From assembly GCF_030684675.1 (NCBI RefSeq), contig NZ_JAUXXZ010000066.1, forward strand, positions 18,728-82,727: a stretch of DNA of 64,000 nt, read 5' to 3'. The notes below the pieces were generated by a model. That model searched no databases and was not told where the DNA came from. It saw nothing but the letters and a program-made list of their open reading frames with translations. How positions within the stretch are numbered: position 1 is the first letter of the stretch; every line of letters starts with the position of its first letter. Below are positions 1-35,065 of the stretch, in pieces. The DNA is from Daejeonella sp. GTDB lineage: Bacteria > Bacteroidota > Bacteroidia > Sphingobacteriales > Sphingobacteriaceae. The position numbers and the translations under genes were made by a program.

Positions 1-781
1 CGACATACTTCTTTTTACCCATTAAAATTCCAGCACTCTGAGGACCGCGCATAGCCTTGCCACCTGAAATTACAACCAAATCAAAGCCCATATCATTGAA
101 CTTCCAAAGATTTTCAACAGGTGGTACGTCTGCAGCAATATCAATCATTGTTGGAAGATTATACTTTTTACCCAATTCAAGCCATTCTGCATGCTTGATC
201 TGACCTACATGAACTTCGCGGTTCAAAAACCACAGCATAGCCGTATTCTCATTGATTGCAGCCTCAACTTCTGCCCGGGTTTCGACTTTGATCAGCTTTA
301 CTCCAGCCTGGGTAAGGGCATGATCATAACCCATCGAATGACTCTTTTGAAGAATCACTTCCGATTTCATCCCGGTTCCTGCAAGATTTGGTACCTGACT
401 TACCCGCTTGGAATCCATCCCTGTCAAAACACCTGCCATACCCAGCATCAATGCCGACCAGCAACCTGCAGATACCAATGCTGCTTCTGCATGGCACATC
501 TGCGCAATCCGTTCACCCACCTTCTCCTGCACATCATCAACAAGAGCAAATTTCTTTGATGCTCCATTAATTGCTTCCATAACTTCAGGTGGCATCAGGC
601 AACCCGACATAACTGTGTAATTGCCTGCGGCGTTTATAAAAGTTCGGATACCCAGCTCTTTGAACAGATCGCGGCCCGCTGCTGGTGCAGAAAGCATGTT
701 ATTAAGTGGTGCAGCTGTCGCTGTAATCCCACCAGCCAGCGGAAGCAGGGTGAGGGATTTTAAAATTTCTCTGCGTTTCAT
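1..781 (-). CDS. SelA/DgaE-like PLP-dependent enzyme, short form, Tat signal (partial, runs off the left edge)
   Basis: Not in the ORF track. Manual translation from ATG at 781 gives MKRREILKSLTLLPLAGG...DLFKELGIRTFINAAGNYT...DIAADVPP...SGGKAMRGPQSAG, collinear with 907..2118 and retaining the PLP-lysine motif SGGK. Confidence 0.9.
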   Translation of the reverse strand, partial: MKRREILKSLTLLPLAGGITATAAPLNNMLSAPAAGRDLFKELGIRTFINAAGNYTVMSGCLMPPEVMEAINGASKKFALVDDVQEKVGERIAQMCHAEAALVSAGCWSALMLGMAGVLTGMDSKRVSQVPNLAGTGMKSEVILQKSHSMGYDHALTQAGVKLIKVETRAEVEAAINENTAMLWFLNREVHVGQIKHAEWLELGKKYNLPTMIDIAADVPPVENLWKFNDMGFDLVVISGGKAMRGPQSAGILMGKKKYV

Positions 782-906
782 TATTGAGATTATTTACTAT
801 TAATTACTTATTATTCCTGTAACAGGAGAATCATAAAATTCAATATTTATAAAATTTAAGGCTCTCTATGCGATAAAATTTAGAAAACCAACTTCTGGGG
901 TATTGT

Positions 907-2118
907 CTAAACATGTGCTTTGAAAAGCTCCTCTCTTATTCTTGATGCTACAATTTTAACCTCATCCTTTTTCAGCATATGAGAGGTTACGTTAATGCTT
1001 CCTGCGGGACCGCCCATTACTTCAATGGATGGGTTTCCATTCCGTAGGTTGACCGCCAGATTTTCTAATCTGATTTTTGATTTATCCCATGATATATTCA
1101 GGGTAGGAATACGATTAATCAATGGCAAAGGAATCAATTCGGCCTTTACTCCCGGAACGGAGGCAGCTTCTTTTGCAATGACAGCTATTCTGTCTTCGAG
1201 CATTTTCCATTCCTTTTCCTGATCTGTATTAATAAAGTGCTCTAAAGCGATATATAAACCAAATATTTCTTCCTTATTCACCTTCATTCCACGGCCAATG
1301 TTTGATCCCCTCGGAGGGGCACTCATTCTGGCCGCAGCAATAAGTTCTTTCTTTCCGCTCAGGATTCCTGTGCTTTGAGGCCCTCTCATAAATTTACCTC
1401 CTGAAACACAAACCAAATCAAAACCCATATCATGAAACTTCCATAAATTTTCTTTTGGTGGAAGATCAGCAGCCATATCAATCATGGTTGGTATCCGGTG
1501 TTTCCTGGCAAGCTCAAGCCATTCTTTATGCTGTATTTTACCCAGCGAAGACTGATAATTTATAAAATACATCATGGCAGTCCTATCACTGATTGCCTTC
1601 TCCAACTCTTCGACTGTTTCCACAGTGATTAATTTCACACCACAATTGGTCAGCGCATGAGCATAACCATCATTATGAGCCTTCTGCAGGATCACTTCAG
1701 TTTTCATAGCTGAACCCTCAAGTCTGGGGATTTGAGAAACCTTCTTTTGGTCGGTTCCACTAAGTACTCCTGCCATTCCAAGCATCAGGGCAGAAAATGC
1801 ACCGGCAGTGACCATGGCCGACTCAGCATGTAACAGACTGGCAATCCTTTCTCCCACTTTATCCTGCACCTCTTCAAGCCTGCAAAAAGATGTTGCAGTT
1901 TCACGAATTGCATCAGCTGCATCATGCTGCATTAAAGATCCGCTGAGGCTTGTAAAATACCCCGAAGCGTTGATGAAAGTTCTTAATCCAAACTCCTTAA
2001 ACAAATCACGTTTTGATGAAGGAGCCGCCTGAGCGGATTGTACCAACGAACCGGAATTCCCTATCGCGCCTGCAAGCGGCAACATGGTTAAGGTTTTGAG
2101 AATTTCCCTGCGCTTCAT
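907..2118 (-). CDS. SelA/DgaE-like PLP-dependent enzyme (fold type I), short form, Tat signal
   Basis: INASG..T.LSGS, DMAAD and SGGKFMRGPQSTG motifs; N-terminus MKRREILK followed by a hydrophobic stretch and AQA. Confidence 0.88.
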   Translation of the reverse strand: MKRREILKTLTMLPLAGAIGNSGSLVQSAQAAPSSKRDLFKEFGLRTFINASGYFTSLSGSLMQHDAADAIRETATSFCRLEEVQDKVGERIASLLHAESAMVTAGAFSALMLGMAGVLSGTDQKKVSQIPRLEGSAMKTEVILQKAHNDGYAHALTNCGVKLITVETVEELEKAISDRTAMMYFINYQSSLGKIQHKEWLELARKHRIPTMIDMAADLPPKENLWKFHDMGFDLVCVSGGKFMRGPQSTGILSGKKELIAAARMSAPPRGSNIGRGMKVNKEEIFGLYIALEHFINTDQEKEWKMLEDRIAVIAKEAASVPGVKAELIPLPLINRIPTLNISWDKSKIRLENLAVNLRNGNPSIEVMGGPAGSINVTSHMLKKDEVKIVASRIREELFKAHV

Positions 2119-2141
2119 TGATTCAAAAGTATAGATAGCAA

Positions 2142-3395
2142 TTATTTAGTAAGATCCGGAAGCGGGTTTACAATGCCATTAAGGTCATAAACAATTTTAC
2201 CTCCGAATATGGTCATTTCACATTCAAGCTTTTCATCACTGTCCATTTTAAAGCCCTGCATGTCATAAAAACCAAATTTTCCTTTTCTCATGCCAAGAAT
2301 AGCGACATCCGCGATAGCACCTTCAGTAAGATGGCCAAGTTGTGGACGGTTGATTGCCTTGGCCGGAGCCCAGGTACTCGCATTAATCACCTCAGGAAGA
2401 TCCATTCCCAATTTCAGGAATTTAGACATTACTAAAAGCATATCTTTCATTGAACCCTTCATACTGCTGATGTGCAGATCCGTACTGATTGTATTGGGGT
2501 GGAAACCGGCTTTTGCAGCTGGAATCGCCTGGGAATATCTGAAACTTGATCCTCCATAACCCACATCAAAAATGACTCCTCTCTTCTGAGCTGCCATCAC
2601 GAAAGGCTTTAAAGCTTGTTTTGCTGTATCTACAATAGCCTCTTTTGTATCAAGTAATTCACCAAAAGTATGGGTAAAGATATCTCCGGGGCGCAAGCGC
2701 TCCATTAACAAAGAGTATAGGGAAAGACGAGGCTTGGTTCCTCCAAAATCGATCATAACAGGCATATTTGCCAATTTACCTGCAGCCACACCACGATCCA
2801 CATTCGTAAAATCGGGACTTGTAAAATGGGCGACTTTAATACCTACAACATGCTCCTTATAAGCCAAAGCTGCTTTTGCAGCGACCTGAGCATCCATATC
2901 AGTAGTATTTTGCTCAATAACACCACCCCGCATACCATTACCAACGATATTCAAGAATGCCAGTACGCGCGTTTGAGAATTGTCAATAATATTCGTTTTA
3001 AAAGTCTGGAAATCTCTCCAGCCCGACCCTCCGGCATCCACAACAGTAGTTACTCCGACGCGCTGATAAAAGCCGTCAGGCATTATACTGTTAAATCCAT
3101 TACTGTACATATGGTTAGGCTCAGTTCCTGCAAAAACATGACCGTGAATATCAATCAGCCCCGGAGTTACATACATCCCTGAAGCATTCACCACACTACT
3201 TGCCTCAGAAACATCAATGCTTAAGGCTACTTTTGCGATCTTACCATCTTTAATGGCCACATCCATAACACGGTTTATATTATTTTTTGGATCAATAACA
3301 TGCCCGCCTTTAATAATAATGTTGTAAGGTTTTGTTTGTGCGAAAAGCGCAATTGGTAACAGGATACTTACAAAGAAAATACAGAACTTCCTCAT
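2142..3395 (-). CDS. Amidohydrolase/deacetylase-family metallohydrolase (COG3964/EF_0837-like), Sec signal
   Basis: IKGGHVIDP, PGLIDIHGH, GVTTVVDAG, KVAH, RPGDIFTH and ISTDLH motifs; signal peptide ending ALFA-Q. Confidence 0.88.
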   Translation of the reverse strand: MRKFCIFFVSILLPIALFAQTKPYNIIIKGGHVIDPKNNINRVMDVAIKDGKIAKVALSIDVSEASSVVNASGMYVTPGLIDIHGHVFAGTEPNHMYSNGFNSIMPDGFYQRVGVTTVVDAGGSGWRDFQTFKTNIIDNSQTRVLAFLNIVGNGMRGGVIEQNTTDMDAQVAAKAALAYKEHVVGIKVAHFTSPDFTNVDRGVAAGKLANMPVMIDFGGTKPRLSLYSLLMERLRPGDIFTHTFGELLDTKEAIVDTAKQALKPFVMAAQKRGVIFDVGYGGSSFRYSQAIPAAKAGFHPNTISTDLHISSMKGSMKDMLLVMSKFLKLGMDLPEVINASTWAPAKAINRPQLGHLTEGAIADVAILGMRKGKFGFYDMQGFKMDSDEKLECEMTIFGGKIVYDLNGIVNPLPDLTK

Positions 3396-3480: not shown

Positions 3481-4779
3481 TCAGTCCAATCTTTTTCCGT
3501 TTTTATCCCATCCTTTGCTAAAAAAATGCGATTCTGGAGAGCTGAGGTAACGTACCCGTGACAATTCAGGTGTCTCCAATATTTTATATCCCAAGATACG
3601 GGATTCAAGTGCAAAATCCAAGATGCCACTGCTTAGCATGGTTCGCTCAACCGGGTAAGGAGCCTTACCTGTCTTGAACATGATCTCCATGTTTTTAACA
3701 AGACATCCGAAATGATAATGCGGTTTTCCGGCCTGTAATTTCATGAGTGTAGAAAATGGCTTTTGCTGACCTTCGATATCTATCGCATAAGTAAAGTCCT
3801 GAAGCAGGCCGGTAAGCAGAAATGCAGCAGCCTTCAACCCATCATTATAATCGATAATAAACACTGCAGGCTTTTTCACTAAGTCTCTCATGCTACCTGC
3901 CACCCGCGTTTCACTGTGTGAAATTGCCAGATCAAAAAGCCGTTTTACCCATTCATTCTGGTCAATGAAGTTCCAGCAATCCTGTCCTTCGAGACATTGG
4001 ACTGCACGAACACCTGTTTCACCCCCCTTCCTTCTTTCAACCACTGCCTGCAGCCCGTCGAGTAGATGAAAGCCATAGATATCAAGTCCGCTGAATGAAA
4101 TTCCAACTGCATATTTTTGCTTTGCCCCATAAGGAGTATCCACCGCAGGAATACGCCAGGAAACAGGAATAGTAGATCCAGCTAACATCGGAAATTTCAA
4201 TTCTTTGGAAATTTCAACCATACGTTTAGCCTGTCTCCAGCTCCATGAAAGGTGCTTATCGTTGAATACCGGGACCGACTTCTTATACTGACGGAATACA
4301 TCAGTAATCTTCAGAAACATTTCAAATCTTGGATACAGTTTTTGCTCCTTATCATTTGTGGGATATACTCCATGTTCGCCGATAAGTATAACTCCATCAA
4401 CAGCAAGCTGATTACCGCCCAAAGTCAGGGCATCTGCCACTGTTCTAAAGATTGGAACATTGTATTTCTTTGCTAATGGGCGACTCATATCATTATCAGG
4501 AACCTGTTCTGTAAAAATCGAAACGATCTTTGAATCAGGGTAAGGAGCCATCTGATCCTGATTAAAACCTTCAAGATATTTTCCGATAATTACATCGGCA
4601 TGTGAACCAGGACGATATTCAGTAATAATTGCTGCAAGCCGTTTTGGTCCTGATTGAAATTCCGGCTTATAATCCGGCATTTCTTCAGCCTGAACCGACT
4701 GGAAAGGCAATACAGCACCTGTTACAGCTCCGGAAACCGGTAAAACTGAGAGGTATTTAATAAGTTCTCTGCGCTTCAT
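3481..4779 (-). CDS. Uncharacterised Tat-exported protein, distant Gfo/Idh/MocA-like oxidoreductase
   Basis: MKRRELIK Tat motif; VDGVILIGEHG and PVFNDKHLS segments resemble Gfo/Idh/MocA Rossmann regions, but there is no clear GxGxxG. Confidence 0.5.
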   Translation of the reverse strand: MKRRELIKYLSVLPVSGAVTGAVLPFQSVQAEEMPDYKPEFQSGPKRLAAIITEYRPGSHADVIIGKYLEGFNQDQMAPYPDSKIVSIFTEQVPDNDMSRPLAKKYNVPIFRTVADALTLGGNQLAVDGVILIGEHGVYPTNDKEQKLYPRFEMFLKITDVFRQYKKSVPVFNDKHLSWSWRQAKRMVEISKELKFPMLAGSTIPVSWRIPAVDTPYGAKQKYAVGISFSGLDIYGFHLLDGLQAVVERRKGGETGVRAVQCLEGQDCWNFIDQNEWVKRLFDLAISHSETRVAGSMRDLVKKPAVFIIDYNDGLKAAAFLLTGLLQDFTYAIDIEGQQKPFSTLMKLQAGKPHYHFGCLVKNMEIMFKTGKAPYPVERTMLSSGILDFALESRILGYKILETPELSRVRYLSSPESHFFSKGWDKNGKRLD

Positions 4780-4880: not shown

Positions 4881-6434
4881 TTACTCTTTATCCCACCAAA
4901 CACGACTTAGAAGTGTATTATCACCACTTTGTCTTGCTTTGGCTGCCAGGAAGTTCTCTCTGTTCAAAGTTTCTTCTGATTCAGGTACAATATAACGACG
5001 CGGAATTCTCCCACCTGTGATATTTCCAGGATAATTAGTTGGAATTAACACAGGATATCCTGTACGTCTCCAGTTAGAGAAGTTTTCTATCTGGTCAAGA
5101 TAACCCAATACCCAGCGCTGAGTAGAGATCTGCTCAAGCTTCTGCTCAAAGGTACCTGCAGCAAGGAACGGATTATATTTCAGATAGGTTGTTACCTTAT
5201 CGGTAGAAATTGCACCTCCCGCTCCATAAAGCGACCATTGTTTCATGGCAGAACTTACACCATTATTATAAGAAGTTGTGGCATTTCCGGCATACCAGCC
5301 TCTGATTGAGGCTTCAGTAAGCAAAAAATGAACCTCTGCAGCACCCATCACTATTACCGGAGCATCATATCTCATCACCGTATTTGGATTTGGCTCAGAA
5401 TAAGTTTCAAAATCCGCAGGATATCCGTTAAACTGCGCATTTTTCATACCTTTTTGCAGGGCAGTTGCTGTATCAGCCACATATCCTCCACCAGATTGTT
5501 TGACCCATAAAACTGAGATCACATTCAAACGCGGATCTTTCGTAGTTGTTGAATTCCCTTTCAGGTGATCAATAAAACGCTGAGAAATTTTTGAACCCTG
5601 AACGTTTAATGGGTTCTGTCCGTCAACATAATCCAACACCCGCATTTGTTCTGAGAATGGATTTCTGTTACTTAACAGTCCACCATCAGCATAAGGTGCT
5701 CTTGTAAGGTCTGCATCATCAATAATCGGACCACCGGCAATTGCCTTTTCTACCCAGGTTTTAGCAAGTGCTGCATCAATTTTTGTCAAACGCATTCCGA
5801 GTCTCAGCATCATTGAATAAGCGAACTTTTTCCATTTTACAGTATTTCCATCATAAAACAAGTCTGAATTTCCATAGGTTGCTTTAGATGCATCAAAAGC
5901 TAAAGCTGCCTCTTCAAGTTCTTTGAACATATCCTTGTAGATATCAGATTGCAGATCATATTTAGGCTGGTATTTAGCTTCCAGACCTTTCAAAGCCTCA
6001 GTATAAGGTATGTCTCCGTAAAGATCTGTTAATTGATGAACGATATAAACACGCCAGATTCTGGCAGCTGAGAGCTTATTGATGTTTGCAGGATCCTTCC
6101 TGGTTTCATTAATCACCAGTTGTATCTGATTCAAACAACCGGAATAAGCAGACCAGTTATTTCTCACATAACCTTCAGCGAAATACTTATCACCCGGTGC
6201 TGTTACCTCACTGTAGGTAGCTTCCTGCTGCAGCATTTGCATATTGTTGAAACGATTACCATTCGGGTTTAATCCGATAGCACTCAATTGAGCCTTTGTA
6301 AACAGAAAATTAGCATTTACACTTTCGTAAGCATTCGGATTCTTATTAAGCTCTGCTAAATCCTTTGTACATGATGACAAAGAAATCGCTAATATAAGAG
6401 CCGTATATATTGGTTTAAAACTTAGATTTTTCAT
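4881..6434 (-). CDS. susD: SusD/RagB-family lipoprotein
   Basis: Lipobox ISLSS-C, DLYGDIPY and W..WRRTGYP motifs, C-terminal RVWWD; adjacent to SusC. Start placed at MKNLSF (the ORF track starts at 6455). Confidence 0.93.
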   Translation of the reverse strand: MKNLSFKPIYTALILAISLSSCTKDLAELNKNPNAYESVNANFLFTKAQLSAIGLNPNGNRFNNMQMLQQEATYSEVTAPGDKYFAEGYVRNNWSAYSGCLNQIQLVINETRKDPANINKLSAARIWRVYIVHQLTDLYGDIPYTEALKGLEAKYQPKYDLQSDIYKDMFKELEEAALAFDASKATYGNSDLFYDGNTVKWKKFAYSMMLRLGMRLTKIDAALAKTWVEKAIAGGPIIDDADLTRAPYADGGLLSNRNPFSEQMRVLDYVDGQNPLNVQGSKISQRFIDHLKGNSTTTKDPRLNVISVLWVKQSGGGYVADTATALQKGMKNAQFNGYPADFETYSEPNPNTVMRYDAPVIVMGAAEVHFLLTEASIRGWYAGNATTSYNNGVSSAMKQWSLYGAGGAISTDKVTTYLKYNPFLAAGTFEQKLEQISTQRWVLGYLDQIENFSNWRRTGYPVLIPTNYPGNITGGRIPRRYIVPESEETLNRENFLAAKARQSGDNTLLSRVWWDKE

Positions 6435-6458
6435 CTTGAAAATTTTAGATAACATTAA

Positions 6459-9400
6459 TTAAAACCTTACAATTAAATTAACCCCAAACTCACGGGTTCT
6501 TGGAATTGTATTTGAGGACTGTCCCTGATTGTTACCGATAGTATAAGCAGATTCCGGATCAAAGTCAGTGATATGCTTGAAAAGAATAAATGGATTTCTG
6601 GCAACAAGTGAGATATCTGCTGACTGAATCTTCAAAGATTGCAGCTTACTAACAGGCAACCTGTAGCTAAGTACTGCGCTACGAAGTTTAATAAAATCAC
6701 CATCAAATACAGAAGTAGTGAGTGGGCTTAAACTAGCCTGGTTATTATAATAGGTATCTAACTGATCAACCGGCCATGTTTTAGTGAAAGGCAAACCTGC
6801 CTGATCAACTCCCGACACAGTTAAACCACTTTCTCTGCCCGGAAGTGTATTTTTCAATAATCCAAAGCGGTACATATAACGGCTTAGTCCTGACTGAACA
6901 ATATTTCCGAATTTAGCATCAAGAAGAACATTCAGGGAGAAGTTTTTGTACCTGAAATTATTGGTCAATCCCATCGTATATGGAGGAACGCCCTGACCAT
7001 ATTCTATCTCTGGACCTTGAACCTCATAACCACTAAGTTTGTTGTAAACACGAACACCGCTTGCATTGGTTAAATAAGTTCTTCCTCTGATAGTATTGTA
7101 GGGTCTTCCAACACCTGCTCCTCCAACGGTACTAAGTCCGGGTGCAAGTTTCAAAATCTCACTCTTGTTGTAGGCAGCATTATAGCTTACATCCCAGGTG
7201 AATTTATCTGACTTGATTGGAGTACCGGTTAATAAGATCTCTACACCTCTGTTACTTAATTCACCAACATTTAGTAATGCTGAAGTATAACCTGAAGATG
7301 CTGCAATTGAAGTACTCAGAATATCATCAGTTGTTTTACGGTTATAGTAAGTGAAGTCTAAACCTAAACGGTTATTCAGGAATTGCATATCGATACCCCC
7401 TTCATAGGTAGTTGAAGTAAGTGGTCTCAGATTCGGATTTGACAAAGCGGAAGAAGTACCCTGAACCGGACGACCTATATGACCTCCCTGCTCAAAAGTA
7501 TACAACTGATTGATCTGATAAGGATTTACAGTTGCACCTCCCACCTGTGCCCAGGAAGCCCTGATCTTTGCAAAACTAATTATTGATGGCAGCTTAATCG
7601 CATCAGAAAGAATGAAACTGGTTCCGAATGATGGATAAAAAATTGAGTTATTACCCGGATTTAGGGTTGAAAACCAATCCTGTCTTCCGGTAAAGGTAAA
7701 ATAAAGCAAACTCTTGTAACCAATATCTGCAGAACCGAATACTGAATTCTGTCCGAAACGGCTTAAACCTACAGTAGCAGATTGGATCGCAAGGTTGGAG
7801 AAACTGATAAAATCAGGAACAATGAATTCTGAACCGTAATTCGAAGTTGATTCAGCAACGTTCCGCTCAATATTTCCTCCTGCCATTGCAGTAAACTGGA
7901 AATCCTCGAAGAAGGTTTTATTGTAATTCAGCAAAGCCTGAGCAGTAGTTTTAGTTACAAATGAGGTTCCTGAATTAAACAATCCTCTAGGTCTTTTTGC
8001 AGTACCAATCGGCATATAATCCATAGACTGGAACCTGTCTATATCCCTCATTCCACTCACCTTTACAGATAAATCATCCAGAATATTGTACTGGATACTT
8101 GCCTGACCCATAAAACGGTTTTTGGCATCTGTATTCCCCATACGATTGATTACGAAATAAGGGTTCTGAGCCTCAGGAACCTGCTGCCATTGAACTTCAT
8201 TGAAATTGGCGTCATAACCAGGAGCCAGACTGCGGATATCCACTGTATTTGCCAACAGGTTTGTAGCCCATGAAGTGGTATTATCAGCATATCCATTTCC
8301 AGGGCGATTTTTTCCCTTCTCTACATTATATTGTAAGGTTGATTCAACAATAATCCTTTTACCTAGCACAGATCTCAAACTTACATTACCAGTCTGTCTG
8401 GCATAACTTGAACCTGGTTCCATTGCCTGAGCTTCGAGATCAGATAATGATACCCTGTAAGTAAGTGATGGTGAAGTACCTCCAGAAAATGCTATCGTAT
8501 TTGTTAAATTCGTGCTTGGCCTGTAGAAATTTTTCCAGTTATCTTTTACGTTAACCGGAGAATAAGGCCTCATAACTCCATCAAACTGGACATAAGGCTG
8601 TCCATCCATTTTAGCTCCAAAAGATAAACGACCGGAACTGATTGCCTGAGCTTTAGTGGTAGGCTTTACACCATCCAGACCCTGACCGTAGGTATATTGT
8701 AAATCAGGATACATTGAAGGACTACCAACTGTGAAATTGCTATTGAATTCTACTCCAATTCCTTTTTGGGCTTTTCCACTCTTGGTTGTAATCAAAATTA
8801 CACCATTCGATGCCTGGCTACCATATAATGCCGCAGCTGGCCCACCCTTCAAGACGTTAATTGTCTCAATATCATCCGGATTGATGGCAGCGATACCATC
8901 TCCACGGTCTAAGATTGTCGCTCCTTCACCTTGTGCCTGTGAACGAGCTGTATTGTTCATTGGCATACCATTAATTACATATAATGGCTGGTTGTTACCA
9001 CTTAATGAACCGTTACCTCTGATGATGACACGACTTGAACCACCAGGACCTGAAGACATACCTGTTACGTTTACACCGGCAATCTTACCGCTGAACGCGT
9101 TTGCCACGTTGTTCTCTCTTGCCTGGGTAAACTCTTCACCTTTCACCTCCGTTACTGAATAGGCCAGCGCCTTTTTCTCTCTGGAAATACCCAATGCCGT
9201 AACTACTACTTCTGTTAACGCTGTGTTGGCAGCCTCAAGTTTTACATTTAGTGTAGTTCTGTTGCCTACTGTAAGCTCCTGAGTTTGATAACCGATATAT
9301 GTAAAAACAAGTACGCTATTATTATCAGGAACATTAATTGTAAATCGTCCATCTAAATCTGTAGTTGCACCAATAGCTGTACCCTTCAGTTTTATACTTA

Positions 9401-9947: not shown

Positions 9948-9954
9948 AAATTTG
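9947..9954 (+). promoter_or_regulatory. Candidate Bacteroidota sigmaA -7 element antisense to susC1
   Basis: TAAATTTG matches TAnnTTTG and overlaps the susC1 ATG at 9947. No clean -33 TTTG was seen. Confidence 0.5.
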
Positions 9955-9959
9955 CTTTG

Positions 9960-25866: not shown

Positions 25867-27423
25867 TTAATTTTTATCCCACCAAAGAGGTGTTGAAGCT
25901 AAATCAGGTCCCCCCAAAAGAGCTACTGCATCTTTCACAGCCTGCCCGTTCCTATCCTTGTCATATTCAAGAAATACAATGCGACGTACAAATTTCCCAA
26001 CTGGAACATCGGGATTATCCGAATTAATCACATTATATCTTTTGGGAAAGCCTGATCTCCTGACCTCGGCCCAGGCTTCCTGTCCATCAGGGAATAAAGC
26101 CAGCCATTTTTGTGTTCCAATCTGTTCTCGCTGCTTAGTTGGATCACTAGAAAATTTTACAGGAATATCACTTATAGCAGGAGTATTAAAATATCCTCCG
26201 GGAGCAGAGGGAAGATTAGTACTATTTATATAACTATTAATAACTGTTACATCGGTAATGCCATTCGTTCGCATAGACATTTCAATACCTTTGGCATATA
26301 ATTCAGCCGCAGTCCCGCCCATGTTCCAGCCATTTACGGCACCTTCTGACCGGAGTAAATACGCTTCGCCAGAACGAATAACCGTCATTGGCTCGGTAGT
26401 CATTTTAACTGGTGTAAAACGGTCGTTTAGATTAGAAGCGTTATTATATCCATTTTGAGGTAAAACAATTTGAGCTGGAATCATCCCATTTCTTAACCCA
26501 CGGTATTGCTTATCATTAACAGCTGGTTGAAAATAGCTACTAAGGCGTGGGTCATCATAGCCTTTCAAGAAGCTCTCCATAGTTTGGCTCATCCTGAATT
26601 CATTCCAAGCTGAGATAAATCCAAGGGCATTCGGACGGGCGGGATCAACTTTCAAATAGGCATCATCAGCAACAACTGTCATAACACCGTTAGCAACGGC
26701 TGCCTCAGCCTCAGTCTTTGCTTTAGCAGCATCTACTTTGGAAATTCTCAACGCAAGACGTAGACGTAACGTATTTGCAAACTTAAGCCATTTGGCATTA
26801 TCCCCGTTGTAAATCAAATCCTGAGATCCATAACCAGGTAGTGCAATATTATTTTTAAGATCAGCACTTGCTTCGGTTAATTCCTTGAAAAAATCGTAAT
26901 AGATATCCTTCTGTGAGTCATAAGCAACTGCTTTTTCCGTAGAGCCAATTTTTGAGTAAGGTACAGGTCCATAATAATCTGTAATACGCATTAAACTAAA
27001 TACTTTCCAAATTCGCGCAATTGCATTCAAAGGTTTAGTTTCGGGTGTCTGTGTTTGCTTAATAATTGTTAATAATGACGGCATGGTAAATACATATGAC
27101 CGTATCCAATGATTTTGTAAGCGAGCCTGAGTTAAATCAAAACGATCCGATGCGAAGGATGTTTGAGTTACAGCAAAATACTGAGCATATAAATCAGCAA
27201 ATGCGTTCACTCCTCTTTGATATTGTGTTCCGCCGCCCAGAGCAACTCCCTGCCATTGTGCATTTGGGAACAGACCCTTCAAATCAGTTGGACTTAATGT
27301 CGTAACGGCTGTAGGGTCGGTATTTCTTTCGTCAAACTCCTTTGTACAGCTACTCAGAATAGCTGCAGCAAGCACTAAAAATAGCATATTAAGCTTTAAC
27401 GGAATATTTATATAATTTTTCAT
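25867..27423 (-). CDS. susD: SusD/RagB-family lipoprotein
   Basis: Lipobox AILSS-C, DYYGPVPYS and EAWAEVRRSGFP motifs, C-terminal PLWWD. Confidence 0.93.
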   Translation of the reverse strand: MKNYINIPLKLNMLFLVLAAAILSSCTKEFDERNTDPTAVTTLSPTDLKGLFPNAQWQGVALGGGTQYQRGVNAFADLYAQYFAVTQTSFASDRFDLTQARLQNHWIRSYVFTMPSLLTIIKQTQTPETKPLNAIARIWKVFSLMRITDYYGPVPYSKIGSTEKAVAYDSQKDIYYDFFKELTEASADLKNNIALPGYGSQDLIYNGDNAKWLKFANTLRLRLALRISKVDAAKAKTEAEAAVANGVMTVVADDAYLKVDPARPNALGFISAWNEFRMSQTMESFLKGYDDPRLSSYFQPAVNDKQYRGLRNGMIPAQIVLPQNGYNNASNLNDRFTPVKMTTEPMTVIRSGEAYLLRSEGAVNGWNMGGTAAELYAKGIEMSMRTNGITDVTVINSYINSTNLPSAPGGYFNTPAISDIPVKFSSDPTKQREQIGTQKWLALFPDGQEAWAEVRRSGFPKRYNVINSDNPDVPVGKFVRRIVFLEYDKDRNGQAVKDAVALLGGPDLASTPLWWDKN

Positions 27424-27472: not shown

Positions 27473-30400
27473 TTAAAATGATGCTTTCAAATTAAGACCA
27501 AATGTTTTTGAAAATGGAAGTGCGATATACTCATTTCCTCCCCTGCCACGTGCAATATCAGGATCGAATGGAGTTGACTTGCTAAAAAAGAATAAATTTC
27601 TTCCAATCAAGGAAATCCTTGCACCCTTAATATATTTCGTCTTGGTCAGCAACTTTGTTGGAATTTTGTAATCCAATGTCATTTCTCTTAATCTCATATT
27701 CGTTGCAGAATAATTGTATTCTTCACCAGTAGGTTTCCTGTCACCTATGGTACTGAAATAGGCTTGAGATGTTATTGAAGTCGTATTCTTAGTACCATCT
27801 GCGCGGTAAGCATCTAATACAATACCTCCTTCACGACCCTCTAAAGAACGTTTCGAGTGTCCATCCGCATCTAACAATGGTTGAGTACCCGCAATTATAT
27901 TCCCCCCATTTCTGTAATCGATTTGAAAACCAAATGACAAATTTTTATAGTTAAAACTATTTGTTAAACCTGCCATGAGATCAGGGTTAAAATTACCGGC
28001 ATACGTGGTTAAACCCGGGGTAAGTAATGGACGCCCCAGATTGTCGACCAATTTGCCTCCTTGTGCATTCCTTTGCCAGCCTTTCACATACAATTCACCA
28101 AAAGGCCTGCCTACTTCCACCCTTGTGGTAACGATATCGTCGCTTTGTATTATTACCGACTTTTGTTCATCAGTAATTCGTACAACATTGTTGTTATTCT
28201 TGGAATAATTAAATGTTGCATCCCATGAAAAACTTCCAAGTTTGATAGGGGTAACATTCATGATAAGTTCGATACCGTTGTTCTCAATCAATCCGGCATT
28301 AATATATCTTTGATCGTAAGTTGAAGCTGACGGCGCCCCTATGAGAAGCAACTGATTGGTCGTTTTGGTTTTATAATATGTTAAATCAAAACCTAAGCGA
28401 TTGTTGAAAAATCTCCAATCCAAGCCTGCTTCAAAGGAAGTGGTTAATTCAGGTTTATAATTATCAAAAGTCTGAATTGTTGGAGTTGAAATAAGACCTC
28501 CAATACCAACCCTGTAATACTCTTTTCCAAAATAGGCATTACCTCCGTTTCCGGCATTAGCTGACGAAATTCTAGCTTTACCGTAAGAAACCCAGGAAGG
28601 CAATTTAACCATATCAGATACAATTGCTGTTAAACCAATTGAAGGATAAAAAACCGATTCTTCTCCTCCTGGAAGCGCTGAAGACCAGTCATTTCTTCCT
28701 GTAACATCCAAATACAAATAATTCTTGTAGGCAAAAGTAAGTGAGGAATAAACAGACTGAATAAGAGGGCTTTGAGAATATGTATTAACAGCCTGAATAG
28801 CCCTTGCATTACCCAAATAGAAAAAATCCTGCTTATTTAAACCATTGGTATTACTGGTAGTCCCGCGATTTGTACTCCCCTGGGTATATCCTCCAATATG
28901 ACCGGATAAATTTATGGTTTTTGTCAGATCCCTTTTAAATGTTAATAATCCATCAATGTTTGAGTTGATATTATTATTAAAACCCATAGAATATGTTGAC
29001 CCTACAGTACTCCAATATGAATCAGAATAGGTCTTATTTTCATTTTCAGAAAAAGTCCTGTTTATATTACCTCTAATTTGAAAAGATAACCAATTATTAA
29101 AATCGTATTTTGCTGAAAGGAGTCCTACTACACGACTCACATTTTCGTTATTTAGATTTCGGTACATGTAGAAATAAGGATTCCCGATAATTGAGGACCC
29201 CGGTTTCCAATAATTCTGCCGGAGATTACCGTTTACATCTGTATACATATAATTCCTCATCTCACTTGTTGGAATTGAAACAGGTGTTCTATAAATAGAA
29301 GTAATAGCATAGCTTACCGGGCTATTATCAACATTTTCTGCATTATAAGTTAACTTGGTATCAATAGAAAGTTTTTTAGATATTGTATTGTTTACTCTTA
29401 ATGTCAGGTTATGTCTTGTAAGATCATTATTCATCATCACTCCCTGAGCCATTATATTCCCGTATGAAAAGAATGTTTGCATTTTTTCAGTTCCGGTGTT
29501 GATACTAAAAGAGTTATTATAAGTTGCCCCTGTTCGAAAGAAATCCTTTAAGTTATCTGGTTGCCCAGCGAGTGATATGGTCTTTCCATTCCATAATGCA
29601 ACGCTTTGACCTGTCATTTTAGGGCCATAGCTATGCTCTGAAGATGGAACATAAATTCCAGCATCGCCCTGCGCATATTCACTTTGAAGCTCAGTATGAA
29701 TATCAGCCTGATCAAAGAGAACCCCTCCATTAAAATCAACAGATGTTGTTCCAGCCTTTCCCCGTTTAGTTGTAATAAGAATTACTCCGTTCTGACCAGC
29801 GCTACCATACAGTGCAGCTGCCGCTGCACCCTTAAGTACAGTAATACTCTCAATATTATCTCCATCTTCAATACCTATACTTCCAGGAACACCATCTGTA
29901 ACATATAAAGGTGCATTATTACCTGTTATTGAGCGGTTTCCACGGAGTAAAACCGTTGATCCTCCTCCAACACCACCTGACCCTCTGGTTATAGTCATAC
30001 CTGCAACTTTTCCCTGCAAAGCATTTACCACATTAGTTCCTGTAGCCTTTGTTAGTTCTTCTCCTTTAACATTCTGTGCAGAGTAAGTTAAAGATTTCGA
30101 TTCCCTTGAAATACCCAAAGCAGTTACAACTACCTCGTTCAACACTGTATTTGCAGTTTCCAATTGAATGTTAATTGTGGTTCTGTCACCTACAACAAGC
30201 TCCTGGGTATTATAACCTATGTATGTAAATACCAAAACACTGCCATTATCAGGAACATTTATAGAGTATTTTCCATCAAGATCAGTTGTGGCACCGGTAT
30301 TAGTACCTTTAATTTTAATACTTACCCCAGGGAGAGTTTCTCCTTTGGAATCAGTAACCTGTCCGCGGATAAGAATATCAGCAACGAAGTTTATATTTTC

Positions 30401-30841
30401 CTGCGTTTTAATTTGTTTTACAGGCTTGTTGTTGTTTGATTGAATCAGTACATTATTATCAACTTGCTTATAAGAAAGATGCGTGTTCTCCAAAAGCATG
30501 TTAAGCACCTGCTCCACTGTATAAGTTGATTGACTAATATTTTTTGAAGGTAAGGTCATCAATTCCCCTTTGCGATACACAAAGCGAAAGGGAGTTTGTT
30601 GTTCGATTTTTTTAAACGCAGACAATAAAGTCTCGTTTCTGAGCTCTAACCTAACTTCTACTGAACCAATCTTCTGGCTATTAGCTGGTAAAGCCAGTAG
30701 CATCTGTAAAGAAACGAGTAGAAAGGCAATGGATATAAAGCCAATTCGCATAATATGTATTATATAGTTTTTGAGGTTAGAGCTACCTGTGATAGTATTC
30801 ACTATGGCAACACCTGAGGTATTGTTTGTAAAATATTTCAT
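27473..30841 (-). CDS. susC: SusC/RagA TonB-dependent transporter with STN domain
   Basis: STN-like segment (AFKKIEQQTPFRFVY), plug motif LYVTDG..IESITVLKGAAAAALYGS..NGVILITTK, terminal F. Confidence 0.93.
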   Translation of the reverse strand: MKYFTNNTSGVAIVNTITGSSNLKNYIIHIMRIGFISIAFLLVSLQMLLALPANSQKIGSVEVRLELRNETLLSAFKKIEQQTPFRFVYRKGELMTLPSKNISQSTYTVEQVLNMLLENTHLSYKQVDNNVLIQSNNNKPVKQIKTQENINFVADILIRGQVTDSKGETLPGVSIKIKGTNTGATTDLDGKYSINVPDNGSVLVFTYIGYNTQELVVGDRTTINIQLETANTVLNEVVVTALGISRESKSLTYSAQNVKGEELTKATGTNVVNALQGKVAGMTITRGSGGVGGGSTVLLRGNRSITGNNAPLYVTDGVPGSIGIEDGDNIESITVLKGAAAAALYGSAGQNGVILITTKRGKAGTTSVDFNGGVLFDQADIHTELQSEYAQGDAGIYVPSSEHSYGPKMTGQSVALWNGKTISLAGQPDNLKDFFRTGATYNNSFSINTGTEKMQTFFSYGNIMAQGVMMNNDLTRHNLTLRVNNTISKKLSIDTKLTYNAENVDNSPVSYAITSIYRTPVSIPTSEMRNYMYTDVNGNLRQNYWKPGSSIIGNPYFYMYRNLNNENVSRVVGLLSAKYDFNNWLSFQIRGNINRTFSENENKTYSDSYWSTVGSTYSMGFNNNINSNIDGLLTFKRDLTKTINLSGHIGGYTQGSTNRGTTSNTNGLNKQDFFYLGNARAIQAVNTYSQSPLIQSVYSSLTFAYKNYLYLDVTGRNDWSSALPGGEESVFYPSIGLTAIVSDMVKLPSWVSYGKARISSANAGNGGNAYFGKEYYRVGIGGLISTPTIQTFDNYKPELTTSFEAGLDWRFFNNRLGFDLTYYKTKTTNQLLLIGAPSASTYDQRYINAGLIENNGIELIMNVTPIKLGSFSWDATFNYSKNNNNVVRITDEQKSVIIQSDDIVTTRVEVGRPFGELYVKGWQRNAQGGKLVDNLGRPLLTPGLTTYAGNFNPDLMAGLTNSFNYKNLSFGFQIDYRNGGNIIAGTQPLLDADGHSKRSLEGREGGIVLDAYRADGTKNTTSITSQAYFSTIGDRKPTGEEYNYSATNMRLREMTLDYKIPTKLLTKTKYIKGARISLIGRNLFFFSKSTPFDPDIARGRGGNEYIALPFSKTFGLNLKASF

Positions 30842-31035: not shown

Positions 31036-32052
31036 TTATTCACAACCTGAACCATCCAGAACTACGACTTTATTGTCCCTGAACTGGTACTTAATCTGAT
31101 TAAACTCAGCAATAATATTTAATATCTGTGGAAGGCTTTGAGATTTCAAAAATGTAGCACTGAATTTGCAAGTTTTAATCTGCTCGTTTGAAAATACAAT
31201 AGAAACTCCGAACCTTTCCTGAAGCTGCTTAGCCACATCCTTAATACTTACATCATCAAAATAAATATCTTCGTTTGTCCACTTGATATATGACTCTGCC
31301 TTAACCGGAGTCTTAACTACATTATTATGTTCCTCATTAAAAACAATTTGCTCATTCGGTGTAATCACATTAAAAGTCTGGTTTTCATCCCCGACTTCAA
31401 CCTTTCCCCTGGTAACCGTAACTGTAACTGTCTTTGCACCGGCACTTGACTTAATGTTGAAAGCGGTTCCAAGAACTGTAGTTTTCAACTTCCCTGTATG
31501 CACAATAAAAGGCCTCTCTGAATCATGGTTAATATCAAAATAGGCCTCCCCCATAAGGTAAACTTCACGTTTCGCATCAGAATTGAAATTTTCAGCAATT
31601 TCAATCTGACTGTTTTCATTAAGGATAACTGAGCTACCATCGGGAAGGTTAATAAACCGACGGGTAGGCTTTTCCACTATTTTTGGCTTTTCTAAAATCA
31701 CCTTAACCTGTTGAGATTCTGAAATTCCAGATCTGCTTAAATAAAACATTGCAGAAAGTCCGATTATAAATATGGCAGCTGCCGATCTATACCAAAAACT
31801 TTTACTTTTGAGTTTTAGAAATGACTCTTTTTCTCTTGAAGAAGCCATTATTGAATTAAAGATGCGCTCAGCTTTTTCTTCAGGAATTGGAGCGTCTGAA
31901 GCAACCTGATTCCAGAATTCATCCAAAAGAATCTTTACCTCATCATCAAAGTCTTCCCGCTTCATCATTGCAAGAAATTCCTCAATTTCATCAGAGGAAG
32001 CCGTCTTTTTGATAAACTGTTGAAAAAGGTACCTGAACCTATGAATTGACAT
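31036..32052 (-). CDS. fecR: FecR-family anti-sigma factor
   Basis: TM segment, LPDGSSVILN, GEAYFDI and TTVLGTAFN motifs. Confidence 0.92.
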   Translation of the reverse strand: MSIHRFRYLFQQFIKKTASSDEIEEFLAMMKREDFDDEVKILLDEFWNQVASDAPIPEEKAERIFNSIMASSREKESFLKLKSKSFWYRSAAAIFIIGLSAMFYLSRSGISESQQVKVILEKPKIVEKPTRRFINLPDGSSVILNENSQIEIAENFNSDAKREVYLMGEAYFDINHDSERPFIVHTGKLKTTVLGTAFNIKSSAGAKTVTVTVTRGKVEVGDENQTFNVITPNEQIVFNEEHNNVVKTPVKAESYIKWTNEDIYFDDVSIKDVAKQLQERFGVSIVFSNEQIKTCKFSATFLKSQSLPQILNIIAEFNQIKYQFRDNKVVVLDGSGCE

Positions 32053-32172: not shown

Positions 32173-32754
32173 TCAAATATTAGAAAATAAGATATAAATA
32201 TTCAGCACCAAATAGTTTGAAACAACTAGCCGAAGGGTACTTAATGCCTTTTTTAAATGAGCTTTAACCGTATTTTTAGAAAGATTAAGGTGGTTCGCTA
32301 TTTCCTCGTACTTCATACCTTCATCCCGACTCATGCTAAATACAATTCGCTGCTGAGGTGGTAACTGATTAACAGCCTGACCTAGAATATGCTGATATTC
32401 CTTATAAATCACTGTTTCTTCTGTGGTATCCTGATATTCGGAATTATTTAAGCTGAGTTTACCAATTATCACAGCTTCCAGAGCTCTGCGTTTGATCGCA
32501 TTAAATGCTCTGTTTCTAACTAATGTATACAGGTACGAACCAAAATGAACTATTTCGCCAAGACCCTGACGATTACACCAAACCTTCAGGAATGCATCCA
32601 TCACGATCTCCTCTGAAAGCTCTTCATCATCAGTTATCCTGAAAGTATAGTTGTAAAGCCTGCTACTATAATGGTTAAAAATTTCACGGAATGCCAGCTC
32701 ATTACCCTCTGAAACAAGGCGTAAAATTTCTGACTCATTCTGTAAAATTTTCAT
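32173..32754 (-). CDS. ECF sigma-70 factor (Bacteroides expansion type)
   Basis: AFREIFNHY..EIVMDAFLKVW and LPPQQRIVF..YEEIA..LSKNTVK motifs. Confidence 0.92.
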   Translation of the reverse strand: MKILQNESEILRLVSEGNELAFREIFNHYSSRLYNYTFRITDDEELSEEIVMDAFLKVWCNRQGLGEIVHFGSYLYTLVRNRAFNAIKRRALEAVIIGKLSLNNSEYQDTTEETVIYKEYQHILGQAVNQLPPQQRIVFSMSRDEGMKYEEIANHLNLSKNTVKAHLKKALSTLRLVVSNYLVLNIYILFSNI

Positions 32755-32889
32755 TTATTAGCCTGATTTTTGAAAAGTTGATTCCAATATAAAATTTTAC
32801 ATTTTAAATACAAAGAATTGATACTTGTTCGTTACAATTCTAAATGCAGCCACCGGACGATAGATATATTTTTTGAGAACATCCTATTT

Positions 32890-33357
32890 TTATACATATC
32901 CAATACAATCAATCTCAATAATCGATCGACCCGGAATTCCTCCTTTAGCAACTGCAACAGTTGAGCGAACTGGTGTTTTTTTACCAAACCTTCCTCTGTA
33001 TACCTCATTCATCCCATCAAAATCAGCCATATCACTTAAAAATACGGTGACTTTCAATACCTTTTCCATCGAGGAGCCTGCAGCAAGCAATCTCTTCTCC
33101 ATCTTTTTTAGTACAAAATCAGTATCAGCCTTGATTTCAAAAACGGATTCCGCATCTGCACCGGTCCCTGAGACAAAAACCAGATTTCCATATCTTATAG
33201 ATCCGGGATACAAGGTAACATCCGGGGATGTACCTGTACTCAAAAACGGGGCATCATTGTTTTGGGGAGTCTGGGACTGAGCCACCAGACTATATCCTGC
33301 AAGTCCGGCAATGGTTGAAAAAAGGCTGGTTATAACTGATCTTCGTGTTGATTTCAT
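32890..33357 (-). CDS. ridA: RidA/YjgF-family protein with Tat-like signal
   Basis: LVFVSG, KVLKVTVFL, PVRSTV (catalytic Arg) and IEID motifs; N-terminus STRRSVITSLF. Confidence 0.85.
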   Translation of the reverse strand: MKSTRRSVITSLFSTIAGLAGYSLVAQSQTPQNNDAPFLSTGTSPDVTLYPGSIRYGNLVFVSGTGADAESVFEIKADTDFVLKKMEKRLLAAGSSMEKVLKVTVFLSDMADFDGMNEVYRGRFGKKTPVRSTVAVAKGGIPGRSIIEIDCIGYV

Positions 33358-33403
33358 AGCCTGTTGTATTATTTATTGAATTCTTTAAAATTTAGCGGCC
33401 TGA

Positions 33404-35065
33404 TCAGGTTGCCAATGGCGGACCTGCAGGAATATTCACTTTTCTTCTTGGCGCTTTCTGCACATTTCGTTTAGCTGTGAATTTAGCTGTGCGGTACTCA
33501 CCGAGATGAATATCACCAGACATGCTGTCTCCATTTACAATCCCTGAAAACTGATAGGACAGATCATCACCCACAATTCGCATAGCACTTTGCATCATGA
33601 CCCGATTTCCCTCAATTGTCCCACTCATACTTCCTGATTGAAATTCAGTCTTATGTGTTCCGCTCAACCAATTGCCATCCTGCACGATATTTAATGAGTG
33701 CTGACTGACACTACTGAAAAACTGAACGCTTAAGTCCCAGCGCCCGCTAAGGTTAGCTACAGGTGCCATCATGCTTTCAGGTTTAGGATTACGCTTTTTC
33801 GAGAAAATTGAAAACACTCTTTCTGCTACAATTTTTTCCTCTCCGGCCTGCATTTGCCCGGTGGTGATATTAAAAAAACTCTCCCCGCTACTATCATCCT
33901 CTGCCCAAACCGCAATTCTGGGTTTATTTCTTCCCAGTTCTTCAGCAAGTTCAAACCCGCTGATATGCAGTTTTTGGGGATCCCAGCTAATTTTTAATAC
34001 TGGCGTTTTATTATCAAGTAAGATGCGTTCAATCACTTCTAATTTCAAACCCGAAATCGGGCTTAATCTTTTTGAAATAGTATCCAGCCATCCCAACCAT
34101 TTCTTCCAATCGGCATCATGGTCACGCTTTACCCAGTCTTCTACTGCTGCCATCATCCCAACCATCTCTTCTCTGCCTACTTTATTGTCGCGGCCCGGAC
34201 CATGATGCGGAGAACTTGCCTGCCATGCAGACATTAAAATAGATTTATCACCCAGCATTAAACCAGCGCATTGGGGTCCGCAAATTGCCTTTCCACCACT
34301 GTACGCAACAATTGTGGCTCCTCTCTTTAGATGGACCGGTGGTAAAGTCAAATTCTCTGCAGCGGCATCAATTAATACCGGTACCTGGTGTGGTTTAGCT
34401 ATCTGCGAAATCACTTCAAGTGATAATGGCTGTCCGGTAAATGTATCTGTATCGGTCGAGCGGATATAGATCATTGCAGTACGTGGATTAATTGCCTTCC
34501 GAAGCTCATCCGGTGTTTTCACACTCACAATTTTAACTCCAATGTTTCGTATGGCATGATCATAGGCATTCCTTGAAAAATCTGGTATAATCACTTCATT
34601 CTTATCAAAACCACTCAAATCAGGAATACGGATTAATTTCTCGGGATTTCCTCCTGTAACGCAGGCAGCTGTGATATGTTTAAGTCCGGCAGCACATCCC
34701 GCCGATACCATACCCCACTCAGCACCCGTAAGATCAGCCAGCCTCTGACCAATTCCATCGGCCAGTTCATCATACTGCACGAAATTATGTGCAGCTGCCT
34801 CCATAGCTGCACGAACGGAAGGACGCTCTAAAGAACCTCCAATAATCGTAAAAGTCCCCATACAATTGATGACAGGTTCGACACCAATGGAACGAAAAAT
34901 ATTTGCTTCATCCATGAAAGCTGAATTTGCTGACTTGGATGTTGATGTTTCAATTATGTTATTACTACCGGCAACTTGAGTATTTGCCTGTACAGATTGA
35001 TTTCTAAGCACAGTTCCTGCGAACGGAAGCAGTGTTAATCCTTTAATTACGTTTCTTCGTTTCAT
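33404..35065 (-). CDS. SelA/DgaE-like PLP enzyme, long form, Tat signal
   Basis: MKRRNVIK; INCMGTFT.IGGS, IDAAAE and SGGKAICGPQCAG motifs; C-terminal beta-rich domain. Confidence 0.85.
   Translation of the reverse strand: MKRRNVIKGLTLLPFAGTVLRNQSVQANTQVAGSNNIIETSTSKSANSAFMDEANIFRSIGVEPVINCMGTFTIIGGSLERPSVRAAMEAAAHNFVQYDELADGIGQRLADLTGAEWGMVSAGCAAGLKHITAACVTGGNPEKLIRIPDLSGFDKNEVIIPDFSRNAYDHAIRNIGVKIVSVKTPDELRKAINPRTAMIYIRSTDTDTFTGQPLSLEVISQIAKPHQVPVLIDAAAENLTLPPVHLKRGATIVAYSGGKAICGPQCAGLMLGDKSILMSAWQASSPHHGPGRDNKVGREEMVGMMAAVEDWVKRDHDADWKKWLGWLDTISKRLSPISGLKLEVIERILLDNKTPVLKISWDPQKLHISGFELAEELGRNKPRIAVWAEDDSSGESFFNITTGQMQAGEEKIVAERVFSIFSKKRNPKPESMMAPVANLSGRWDLSVQFFSSVSQHSLNIVQDGNWLSGTHKTEFQSGSMSGTIEGNRVMMQSAMRIVGDDLSYQFSGIVNGDSMSGDIHLGEYRTAKFTAKRNVQKAPRRKVNIPAGPPLAT

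Follow-up and report, generated by a model that had tools for sequence, protein, structure and literature searches.

Deamination by enzymes that depend on pyridoxal 5'-phosphate (PLP) and the "damage control" exerted by RidA proteins are usually regarded as cytoplasmic processes. The present analysis concerns five DgaE/SelA-like PLP enzymes encoded in the first 35 kb of a 64,000-nucleotide stretch of Daejeonella sp. (NCBI RefSeq assembly GCF_030684675.1, contig NZ_JAUXXZ010000066.1, positions 18,728 to 82,727; the entire stretch is called the window below). To judge from their N-termini, these enzymes are very probably exported to the periplasm by the twin-arginine translocation (Tat) pathway. 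The closest characterized relative by sequence is DgaE of Salmonella (PDB 7lc0), which ranks first among PDB entries, is likewise a SelA-like protein of fold type I, and shares the PLP-binding Asp, Ser, and Lys residues. DgaE differs in being leaderless and cytoplasmic and in belonging to a separate clade, while the window proteins are without its residues His162/His163 and Arg301/332/346. In addition, 10 of the 18 paralogues in the Daejeonella genome carry an extra C-terminal β-barrel. In structure and profile, Cap15 comes just as near, an O2- and PLP-dependent enzyme of capuramycin biosynthesis (8t7j; Foldseek E-value 2e-24, template modelling (TM) score 0.85, profile E-value 5e-71). Cap15, however, is a leaderless cytoplasmic biosynthetic enzyme of an actinomycete, and its chemistry is not an elimination.

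A mechanistic precedent for the export of PLP holo-enzymes is provided by PvdN and PtaA, two PLP enzymes with Tat signals that take part in pyoverdine maturation in Pseudomonas. Experiments have shown that PLP is inserted into these enzymes before Tat transport, as summarized in a 2026 review of the Tat system (Ringel et al. 2016, 2017, via PMC13673990). By their description, PvdN and PtaA belong to other PLP families, are encoded in single copy, act in biosynthetic tailoring, and have no known RidA or amidohydrolase partners, whereas the family described here is expanded and would be catabolic. The premise of the original prediction, a reading of the window made from its letters, that PLP enzymes are uncommon in the periplasm holds, although Tat export of PLP-loaded enzymes has these two precedents. 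For that reason, the novelty of the present system is in the family and its pathway and not in Tat export of PLP enzymes as a principle. No paper on the exported DgaE/SelA-like clade or on its loci was found in the full-text literature that was searched, which is not proof of absence.

Two further systems resemble the loci described here in the company that their deaminating enzymes keep. In the Ong pathway of Pseudoalteromonas prydzensis, which acts on oxidised chitin/GlcNAc1A, the deacetylase OngB, the PLP-dependent deaminase OngC, the essential RidA protein OngD, and KdgK work together (PMC9537276). The likeness consists of TonB-dependent import, N-deacetylation of a 2-acetamido-aldonate by an amidohydrolase, PLP-dependent deamination, and the genetic requirement for RidA (PMC9537276). 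A cytoplasmic location is predicted for OngB, OngC, and OngD, whereas all three enzyme classes carry export signals in the case presented here. The protein families are also different: OngB is of the D-aminoacylase type and OngC of the D-amino-acid deaminase type, as opposed to the PRK09237 and DgaE-like families of the window. The second system is the periplasmic L-amino-acid oxidase-RidA complex (M-alpha/M-beta) of Chlamydomonas, to which a Gluconacetobacter cluster encoding a Tat-signal L-amino-acid oxidase and a RidA protein can be added (PMC5053998). A deaminase and a RidA-family protein release ammonium from external amino compounds outside the cytoplasm in these organisms (PMC5053998). 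There, deamination is brought about by a flavin oxidase and not by a PLP enzyme.

The window has a G+C content of ~39 %, is Bacteroidota-like with its SusC/SusD pairs and extracytoplasmic function (ECF) sigma/anti-sigma pairs, and encodes proteins of which the nearest database relatives are named Daejeonella. The five open reading frames (ORFs) start on the minus strand exactly where the original prediction had placed them. Their N-termini read MKRREILK (twice), MKRRDIIK, MKRREIIK, and MKRRNVIK, with xLTΦLPΦA(G/S) following next (Φ, hydrophobic residue), giving the general form M-K-R-R-x-Φ-Φ-K then xLxxΦPΦAG. All five contain an SGGK sequence, which in the alignment falls on the Schiff-base motif SGAK of the DgaE from Salmonella, and TIGR01437 (selA_rel/DgaE family) is the top family match for each of them, with E-values from 2e-33 to 7e-49. 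The expansion of the family turned out to be larger than had been claimed: 18 paralogues, 8 short forms of 403-417 amino acids (aa) and 10 long forms of 533-560 aa, are encoded in the genome (4.25 Mb, 84 contigs). All 18 start with the leader M-[KN]-R-R-x-Φ-Φ-K-x-L-x-Φ-Φ-P-Φ-A-G, in which R3-R4, K8, L10, and P14 are kept throughout; KRR[DENQS]ΦΦK is present in 17, the remaining one beginning with MNRR. Short and long forms are 66 % identical over residues 1-17 and 34 % identical over the mature enzyme. As in-frame stops are located 1-26 codons upstream of MKRR with no earlier start codon between, MKRR is the translated N-terminus. The arginine codons vary, five being used for the first residue (CGC, CGT, CGA, AGA, or AGG) and three for the second (AGA, AGG, or CGC), and since the N-terminus stays fixed nevertheless, the leader is under selection at the protein level. 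Read from these sequences, the leader pattern is one of conservation and not of chance.

A HMMER search of 1.84 billion representatives yielded 3687 relatives, the best 150 of which are of two kinds. The leaderless proteins have ~375-390 aa and start directly at the conserved M.IYE.LGV..INA; the N-terminally extended ones are longer and carry canonical Tat motifs, e.g., LTRRSFLK, SRRDFFR, or DRRDFIK. A tree was made from 118 full-length rows from which the leader region, up to the first conserved mature motif, had been trimmed off. It splits into a leader clade of 58 rows and a leaderless clade of 60 rows that contains DgaE. Of the 58 rows, 52 have a twin-arginine (RR) leader and 2 a lipoprotein/Sec-type leader, while the other 4 lack a leader or are truncated at the N-terminus; of the 60 rows, 50 are leaderless, 2 have RR, and 8 are unclassified. 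Three changes between RR and no leader suffice on this tree. The short and the long forms of the Daejeonella genome both fall within the leader clade, which answers the question about their phylogeny relative to DgaE: the exported enzymes most likely are an ancient sister clade of the cytoplasmic DgaE-like enzymes. The leader clade comprises Bacteroidota, Acidobacteriota, Actinomycetota, and Eremiobacterota, with Amycolatopsis (Actinomycetota), Acidobacteriaceae, and Ca. Aquilonibacter (Eremiobacterota) among its named members, in which SRRxFLK-type motifs are found. In an alignment of 30 clade sequences with a mean identity of 35 %, the positions that never vary are M1, R3, and R4 together with a few in the core, the lysine of SGGK among them.

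As a separate observation, the RR leaders of four clade proteins (P0253, P0256, P0262, and P0379) end in a lipobox-like Cys (...SLGGC, ...GLAGC, ...SLSGC), and these versions may be Tat-exported lipoproteins.

The leaders have the layout of a signal peptide, with a charged start, RRxΦΦK, a short and weakly hydrophobic stretch, an AxA-type site, and a low-complexity linker. Sites that can be read as AxA-type (AQA↓A, AVA↓A, VQA↓N, and SNA↓S in our own reading of the sequences) are located 20-31 residues in. Upon alignment with DgaE, residue 38 of the query corresponds to DgaE residue 4, leaving an extension of ~37-55 residues that is absent from the cytoplasmic enzyme; the leader is therefore an N-terminal addition to a DgaE body. 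Likewise, in an AlphaFold 2 (AF2) model of the 553-aa form 33404..35065, residues 1-44 (leader and linker) are disordered and precede a confident fold-type-I core. The Tat translocase that the original prediction had asked for is present: a genome search revealed an intact reading frame for TatC (214 bits) and three intact TatA/B genes (60-70 bits). A simple rule of our own finds ~110-120 ORFs with RR leaders in the whole genome. Together, these data suggest with high confidence that this PLP enzyme family is exported to the periplasm by Tat. Tat dependence and signal cleavage are predictions, as is the loading with PLP before export, which is suggested by analogy.

In the AF2 model, the body of the enzyme has fold type I (aspartate aminotransferase superfamily), with the PLP lysine after the central sheet. 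Pfam matches were obtained with Aminotran_5, SelA, and Cys_Met_Meta_PP, and the nearest structures found by Foldseek are Cap15 and DgaE at TM scores to the target of 0.83-0.85, followed by SelA. The single protein matches DgaE with an E-value of 4e-25, and the profile of the clade matches it with 4e-73. For residue mapping onto DgaE, 17 of the 18 genome paralogues entered the alignment. The PLP-binding residues D189, S210, and K213 are present in all 17; they are kept in 50-51 of 51 sequences of the RR set (K213 and S210 being invariant and D189 present in 50) and in 49-50 of 50 sequences of the leaderless set. A function as SelA was rejected: TIGR00474 scores 16-42 bits as compared with a cut-off of 267.9, and the N-terminal tRNA-binding domain is absent, a signal peptide taking its place. 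The database names "seleniumtransferase" are thus mis-annotations. The C-terminal ~130 aa of the long forms, which also occur in the long forms of Acidobacteria and Actinomycetota, were modelled as an eight-stranded up-and-down β-barrel (AF2, predicted local distance difference test ~85-93; residues 441-533 in 33404..35065). Foldseek returned only generic small β-barrels, calycin/FABP-like, for this domain, with TM scores of ~0.45-0.64 and no family assignment; one match within that range is a domain of quinohemoprotein amine dehydrogenase.

The genes surrounding the five enzyme genes are listed in Table 1. Every neighbour at the enzyme loci carries an export signal, SusC/D genes adjoin them, and no glycoside hydrolase is present among the listed and scanned ORFs of the 35-kb region. 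Amidohydrolases with Sec leaders are encoded four times in the window and 26 times in the genome. Genome-wide, the short forms are located beside SusC/D and one to three amidohydrolases, and the long forms occur together with amidohydrolases, glucose/sorbosone dehydrogenase/cytochrome c, and lactonase, a RidA with a Tat leader (Tat-RidA) being present at 4 of the 10. The genome has six RidA-like ORFs, and the four of these with RR leaders each have a long-form PLP gene no more than a few kb away. A Tat-RidA gene beside a Tat-PLP gene was also observed in Ca. Aquilonibacter, where it is immediately upstream, and in a distant high-GC Bacteroidota genome (L005). An apparent fusion of RidA with the PLP enzyme (P0398, 632 aa) was rejected as a read-through call over two adjacent genes, the PLP part keeping a complete RR leader in the middle of the protein. 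Downstream of the SusC/D genes of locus 2 the run 20777..25707 combines lactonase, amidohydrolase, cytochrome c-PQQ dehydrogenase, and CBM9-like protein genes (PQQ, pyrroloquinoline quinone), and this combination is found again on contigs C47 and C83 as well as in genome G116 (L006). The ORF of the PIG-L/LmbE-type enzyme starts with TTG; a leader MKRRNFLEK begins 10 codons in, the ATG of which is probably the true start, making this protein another Tat candidate.

Table 1 The five PLP enzyme genes and their neighbours (coordinates in the window)
Feature	Coordinates	Strand	Remarks
Short-form DgaE/SelA-like PLP enzyme	2..781	-	N-terminal 260 aa only, cut by the window edge; genome copy 406 aa; MKRREILKSLTLLPLAGG; leader MKRREILKSLTLLPLAGGITATAAP
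Short-form DgaE/SelA-like PLP enzyme	907..2118	-	403 aa; MKRREILKTLTMLPLAGA; leader MKRREILKTLTMLPLAGAIGNSGSLVQSAQA followed by AP; DgaE alignment from residue 38
Long-form DgaE/SelA-like PLP enzyme	12037..13701	-	554 aa; RR leader; C-terminal 8-stranded β domain; MKRRDIIKGLTLLPFASN
Long-form DgaE/SelA-like PLP enzyme	16032..17687	-	551 aa; RR leader; C-terminal β domain; MKRREIIKGLTLLPFAGS
Long-form DgaE/SelA-like PLP enzyme	33404..35065	-	553 aa; MKRRNVIKGLTLLPFAGT
RidA (PF01042)	15331..15804	-	RR leader MKMKTERRSVLKKLFASIVGVAGFGMAANA; directly downstream of long form 16032..17687
RidA	32890..33357	-	RR leader MKSTRRSVITSLFSTIAGLAGYSLVAQS; directly downstream of long form 33404..35065
Amidohydrolase/deacetylase, PRK09237 family	2142..3395	-	433 bits vs cut-off 371; Sec-type leader; paired with short form 907..2118
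Amidohydrolase paralogue	13757..15031	-	Sec-type leader
Amidohydrolase paralogue	17869..19110	-	Sec-type leader
Amidohydrolase paralogue	22107..23357	-	Sec-type leader
PIG-L/LmbE-type de-N-acetylase	19120..20175	-	RR leader
432-aa protein without family match	3481..4779	-	Same leader subtype (MKRRELIKYLSVLPVSGAV; MKRRELIKYLSVLPVSG)
Exported 7-bladed β-propeller lactonase (PF10282)	20777..21910	-	
Cytochrome c fused to PQQ-type glucose/sorbosone dehydrogenase (PF13442 + PF07995)	23387..24958	-	
Exported CBM9-like protein (PF16011)	24958..25707	-	
SusD-like protein, locus 1	4881..6455	-	
SusC-like TonB-dependent transporter, locus 1	6459..9971	-	
SusD-like protein, locus 2	25867..27423	-	
SusC-like transporter, locus 2	27473..30841	-	
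Probable FecR-like anti-sigma factor, locus 1	10064..11242	-	Read from translations, paralogue counts only
Probable ECF sigma factor, locus 1	11340..11897	-	Read from translations, paralogue counts only
Probable FecR-like anti-sigma factor, locus 2	31036..32052	-	Read from translations, BLAST to locus-1 pair only
Probable ECF sigma factor, locus 2	32173..32754	-	Read from translations, BLAST to locus-1 pair only

These data can be combined into a periplasmic route for the breakdown of amino sugars, the reactions and substrates of which are suggested by the gene neighbourhood. The PLP enzymes would be made with a twin-arginine signal peptide consisting of M-K-R-R-x-Φ-Φ-K, a weakly hydrophobic stretch, and an AxA-type site. 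Folding and PLP binding would take place in the cytoplasm, probably with formation of oligomers, since it takes two subunits to make up a fold-type-I active site, and the proteins would then be carried across the inner membrane in the folded state by TatABC to work in the periplasm. Substrates would enter via the adjacent SusC/SusD proteins. At the long-form loci, the cytochrome c-PQQ sugar dehydrogenase would oxidise the amino sugar at C1, and the lactonase would open the resulting lactone. Removal of the N-acyl group would be the task of the Sec-exported amidohydrolases or of the Tat-exported PIG-L enzyme, after which the PLP enzyme would take off the α-amino group by β-elimination. Its likely substrate would be a 2-amino-2-deoxy-aldonate that is not phosphorylated, e.g., D-glucosaminate, or another D-α-amino acid with a β-hydroxyl group. 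Finally, hydrolysis of the released enamine/imine by the co-exported RidA would give ammonium and a 2-keto-3-deoxy acid. We consider a Tat-exported sister clade of DgaE-like enzymes that deaminates amino-aldonates in the periplasm to be the likely explanation for the loci as a whole.

The alternative that survives best, unlikely as it seems to us, leaves Tat export in place and gives the enzymes another PLP chemistry in the periplasm: O2-dependent oxidative decarboxylation as performed by Cap15, transamination of the PtaA/PvdN type, or racemisation/epimerisation of amino sugars or D-amino acids. The observations that weigh against deamination of amino-aldonates concern mostly the active site. 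Cap15 equals DgaE as the top match both in structure and in sequence profile. The His162-His163 loop, which is strictly conserved in DgaE and in which His163 is the C3 proton donor (PMC9529869), is present as a pair in none of the 17 aligned paralogues; one short form has a lone His at column 162, no paralogue has a His at column 163, and the profile of the exported clade handles HH as an insertion. The three columns of the phosphate site formed by Arg301, Arg332, and Arg346 are without Arg in all of these 17 proteins, the consensus of the clade being Thr, Gly, and an aromatic residue. The scores for the DgaE family are far below the curated cut-offs (TIGR01437, 116-167 bits vs 385; equivalog NF047797, 100-140 bits vs 600), the 18 paralogues form two deep subgroups that differ in active-site residues, e.g., His vs Ser at DgaE position 112, and RidA is near only 4 of the 18 copies, all long forms, so that 14 copies, including all short forms, are without a RidA gene close by.

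Because of the missing His-His loop and phosphate arginines, the enzymes are not D-glucosaminate-6-phosphate ammonia-lyases, and together with the low scores this rules them out as true orthologues of DgaE that act on a phosphorylated substrate. Loss of the phosphate site does fit a non-phosphorylated substrate, as would be expected in the periplasm. Also, an H163A mutant of DgaE releases the enamine rather than the imine (PMC9529869), from which we infer that a relative without this His may need a dedicated RidA. The deaminase reading further draws on the neighbouring genes: a Tat-RidA gene directly adjoins the PLP gene in three phyla, and the pairing with amidohydrolase, dehydrogenase, and lactonase corresponds to the scheme of the Ong and Dga pathways, in which deacetylation is followed by deamination. 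RidA proteins hydrolyse the enamines/imines that are released by eliminating or oxidising enzymes. The claim that the five proteins are PLP ammonia-lyases therefore stands as far as the DgaE/SelA-fold and PLP binding are concerned, and less firmly for the reaction; ammonia-lyase chemistry on amino-aldonates, as suggested by the neighbourhood, is in our estimate slightly favoured.

Very unlikely, in our view, is that the leaders are ordinary Sec signals or uncleaved signal anchors with an RR by chance, and that the enzymes cross the membrane unfolded and acquire PLP only in the periplasm, a route that is assumed for the periplasmic broad-spectrum racemases. What speaks for it, and against Tat, is that the best score of the window leaders with the curated model TIGR01409 is 15.1 bits, below the cut-off of 16.7, that several leaders give no match, and that a scan of the isolated window leaders with the Pfam library yielded no Tat-signal match. 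The lipoprotein/Sec-type leaders of two members of the leader clade indicate that Tat is not obligatory for this fold. As reviewed in PMC13673990, an RR pair by itself does not render a Sec signal Tat-dependent, and the hydrophobicity ranges of the two kinds of signal overlap. The original claim that all five proteins have Tat signals is backed by the RR anatomy, its conservation, and the Tat genes, and is qualified by the scores of the window leaders. The complete RRxΦΦK motif is present in the leaders, however, and RR is invariant in the 52 RR leaders of the clade, which come from several phyla: none has KR, RK, or KK instead, although Sec signals tolerate Lys. Compared with Sec leaders of the same operons, the leader stretch is of markedly lower hydrophobicity. 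Its maximum Kyte-Doolittle value over 10 residues is 1.8±0.15, whereas ~2.8-3.1 is reached in the Sec leaders, typically MKK..FLLLL..AQAQ, of the 26 amidohydrolase paralogues; this evaluation and that of the cleavage sites were made with heuristics of our own. The difference is in the direction described for Tat signals, which are less hydrophobic than Sec signals (PMC13673990). When the 52 clade leaders were tested as a set, formate_TAT matched 24 and TIGR01409 matched 19 at E<=0.1. These two models were the sole recurrent matches, and neither matched any of the 26 control Sec leaders from the same genome at the same threshold.

That the proteins are cytoplasmic, with an N-terminal peptide used for regulation, assembly, or tethering to the cytoplasmic face of the membrane, would agree with the location of the characterized relatives SelA, DgaE, and Cap15 but is highly improbable, as the peptide is laid out in full like a signal peptide, there is a sister clade without leaders, the operon partners are all exported and the operons fed by SusC/D, and the phosphate site expected for a cytoplasmic substrate derived from a phosphotransferase system or a kinase is missing.

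The distribution of the family is patchy within the Bacteroidota. In the same genus, 28 of 36 genomes have 4-21 copies and eight species have none, and the family is absent from 24 other genera of the same class that were searched. A sample of 120 genomes from the phylum contains it in one other genome, a distant one of high GC content, with the same RR leaders and the same neighbours. With between 0 and 21 copies per genome in these 36 congeneric species, the loci have the character of an accessory module that is gained and lost. If the proposed reading is true, PLP/RidA chemistry has been moved to the periplasm across phyla, and to the outside of the cell in Actinomycetota. It would also define a class of SusC/D loci without glycoside hydrolases and would add a third, much larger example of PLP holo-enzymes that travel by the Tat pathway. 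The family makes available a set of enzymes that can be tested for the breakdown of oxidised amino sugars. A broader proposal, which we put forward tentatively and which is somewhat less likely to hold than to fail, is that the catabolism of amino sugars and N-acylated amino compounds takes place completely outside the cytoplasm, with the 18 copies specialised on many amino-aldonates or D-amino acids, as a general and hitherto overlooked strategy by which soil Bacteroidota, Acidobacteriota, and Actinomycetota scavenge nutrients and nitrogen.

One protein encoded in the window, that of 432 aa, matches nothing in Pfam or NCBIfam and, at E<=1, no sequence in the PDB. Its paralogues in the genome number five, and its gene sits between those for SusD and an amidohydrolase. 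The leader subtype that it has in common with the PLP enzymes, MKRRxΦΦKxLxxΦPΦAG, was also observed on unrelated proteins encoded on contigs C2, C3, C4, and C7, among them a RidA (C3:45126-45617), a pair of small C4 proteins (165 and 184 aa), and others with lengths of 317, 326, and 415 aa. This shared subtype may be a lineage-specific Tat leader "cassette".

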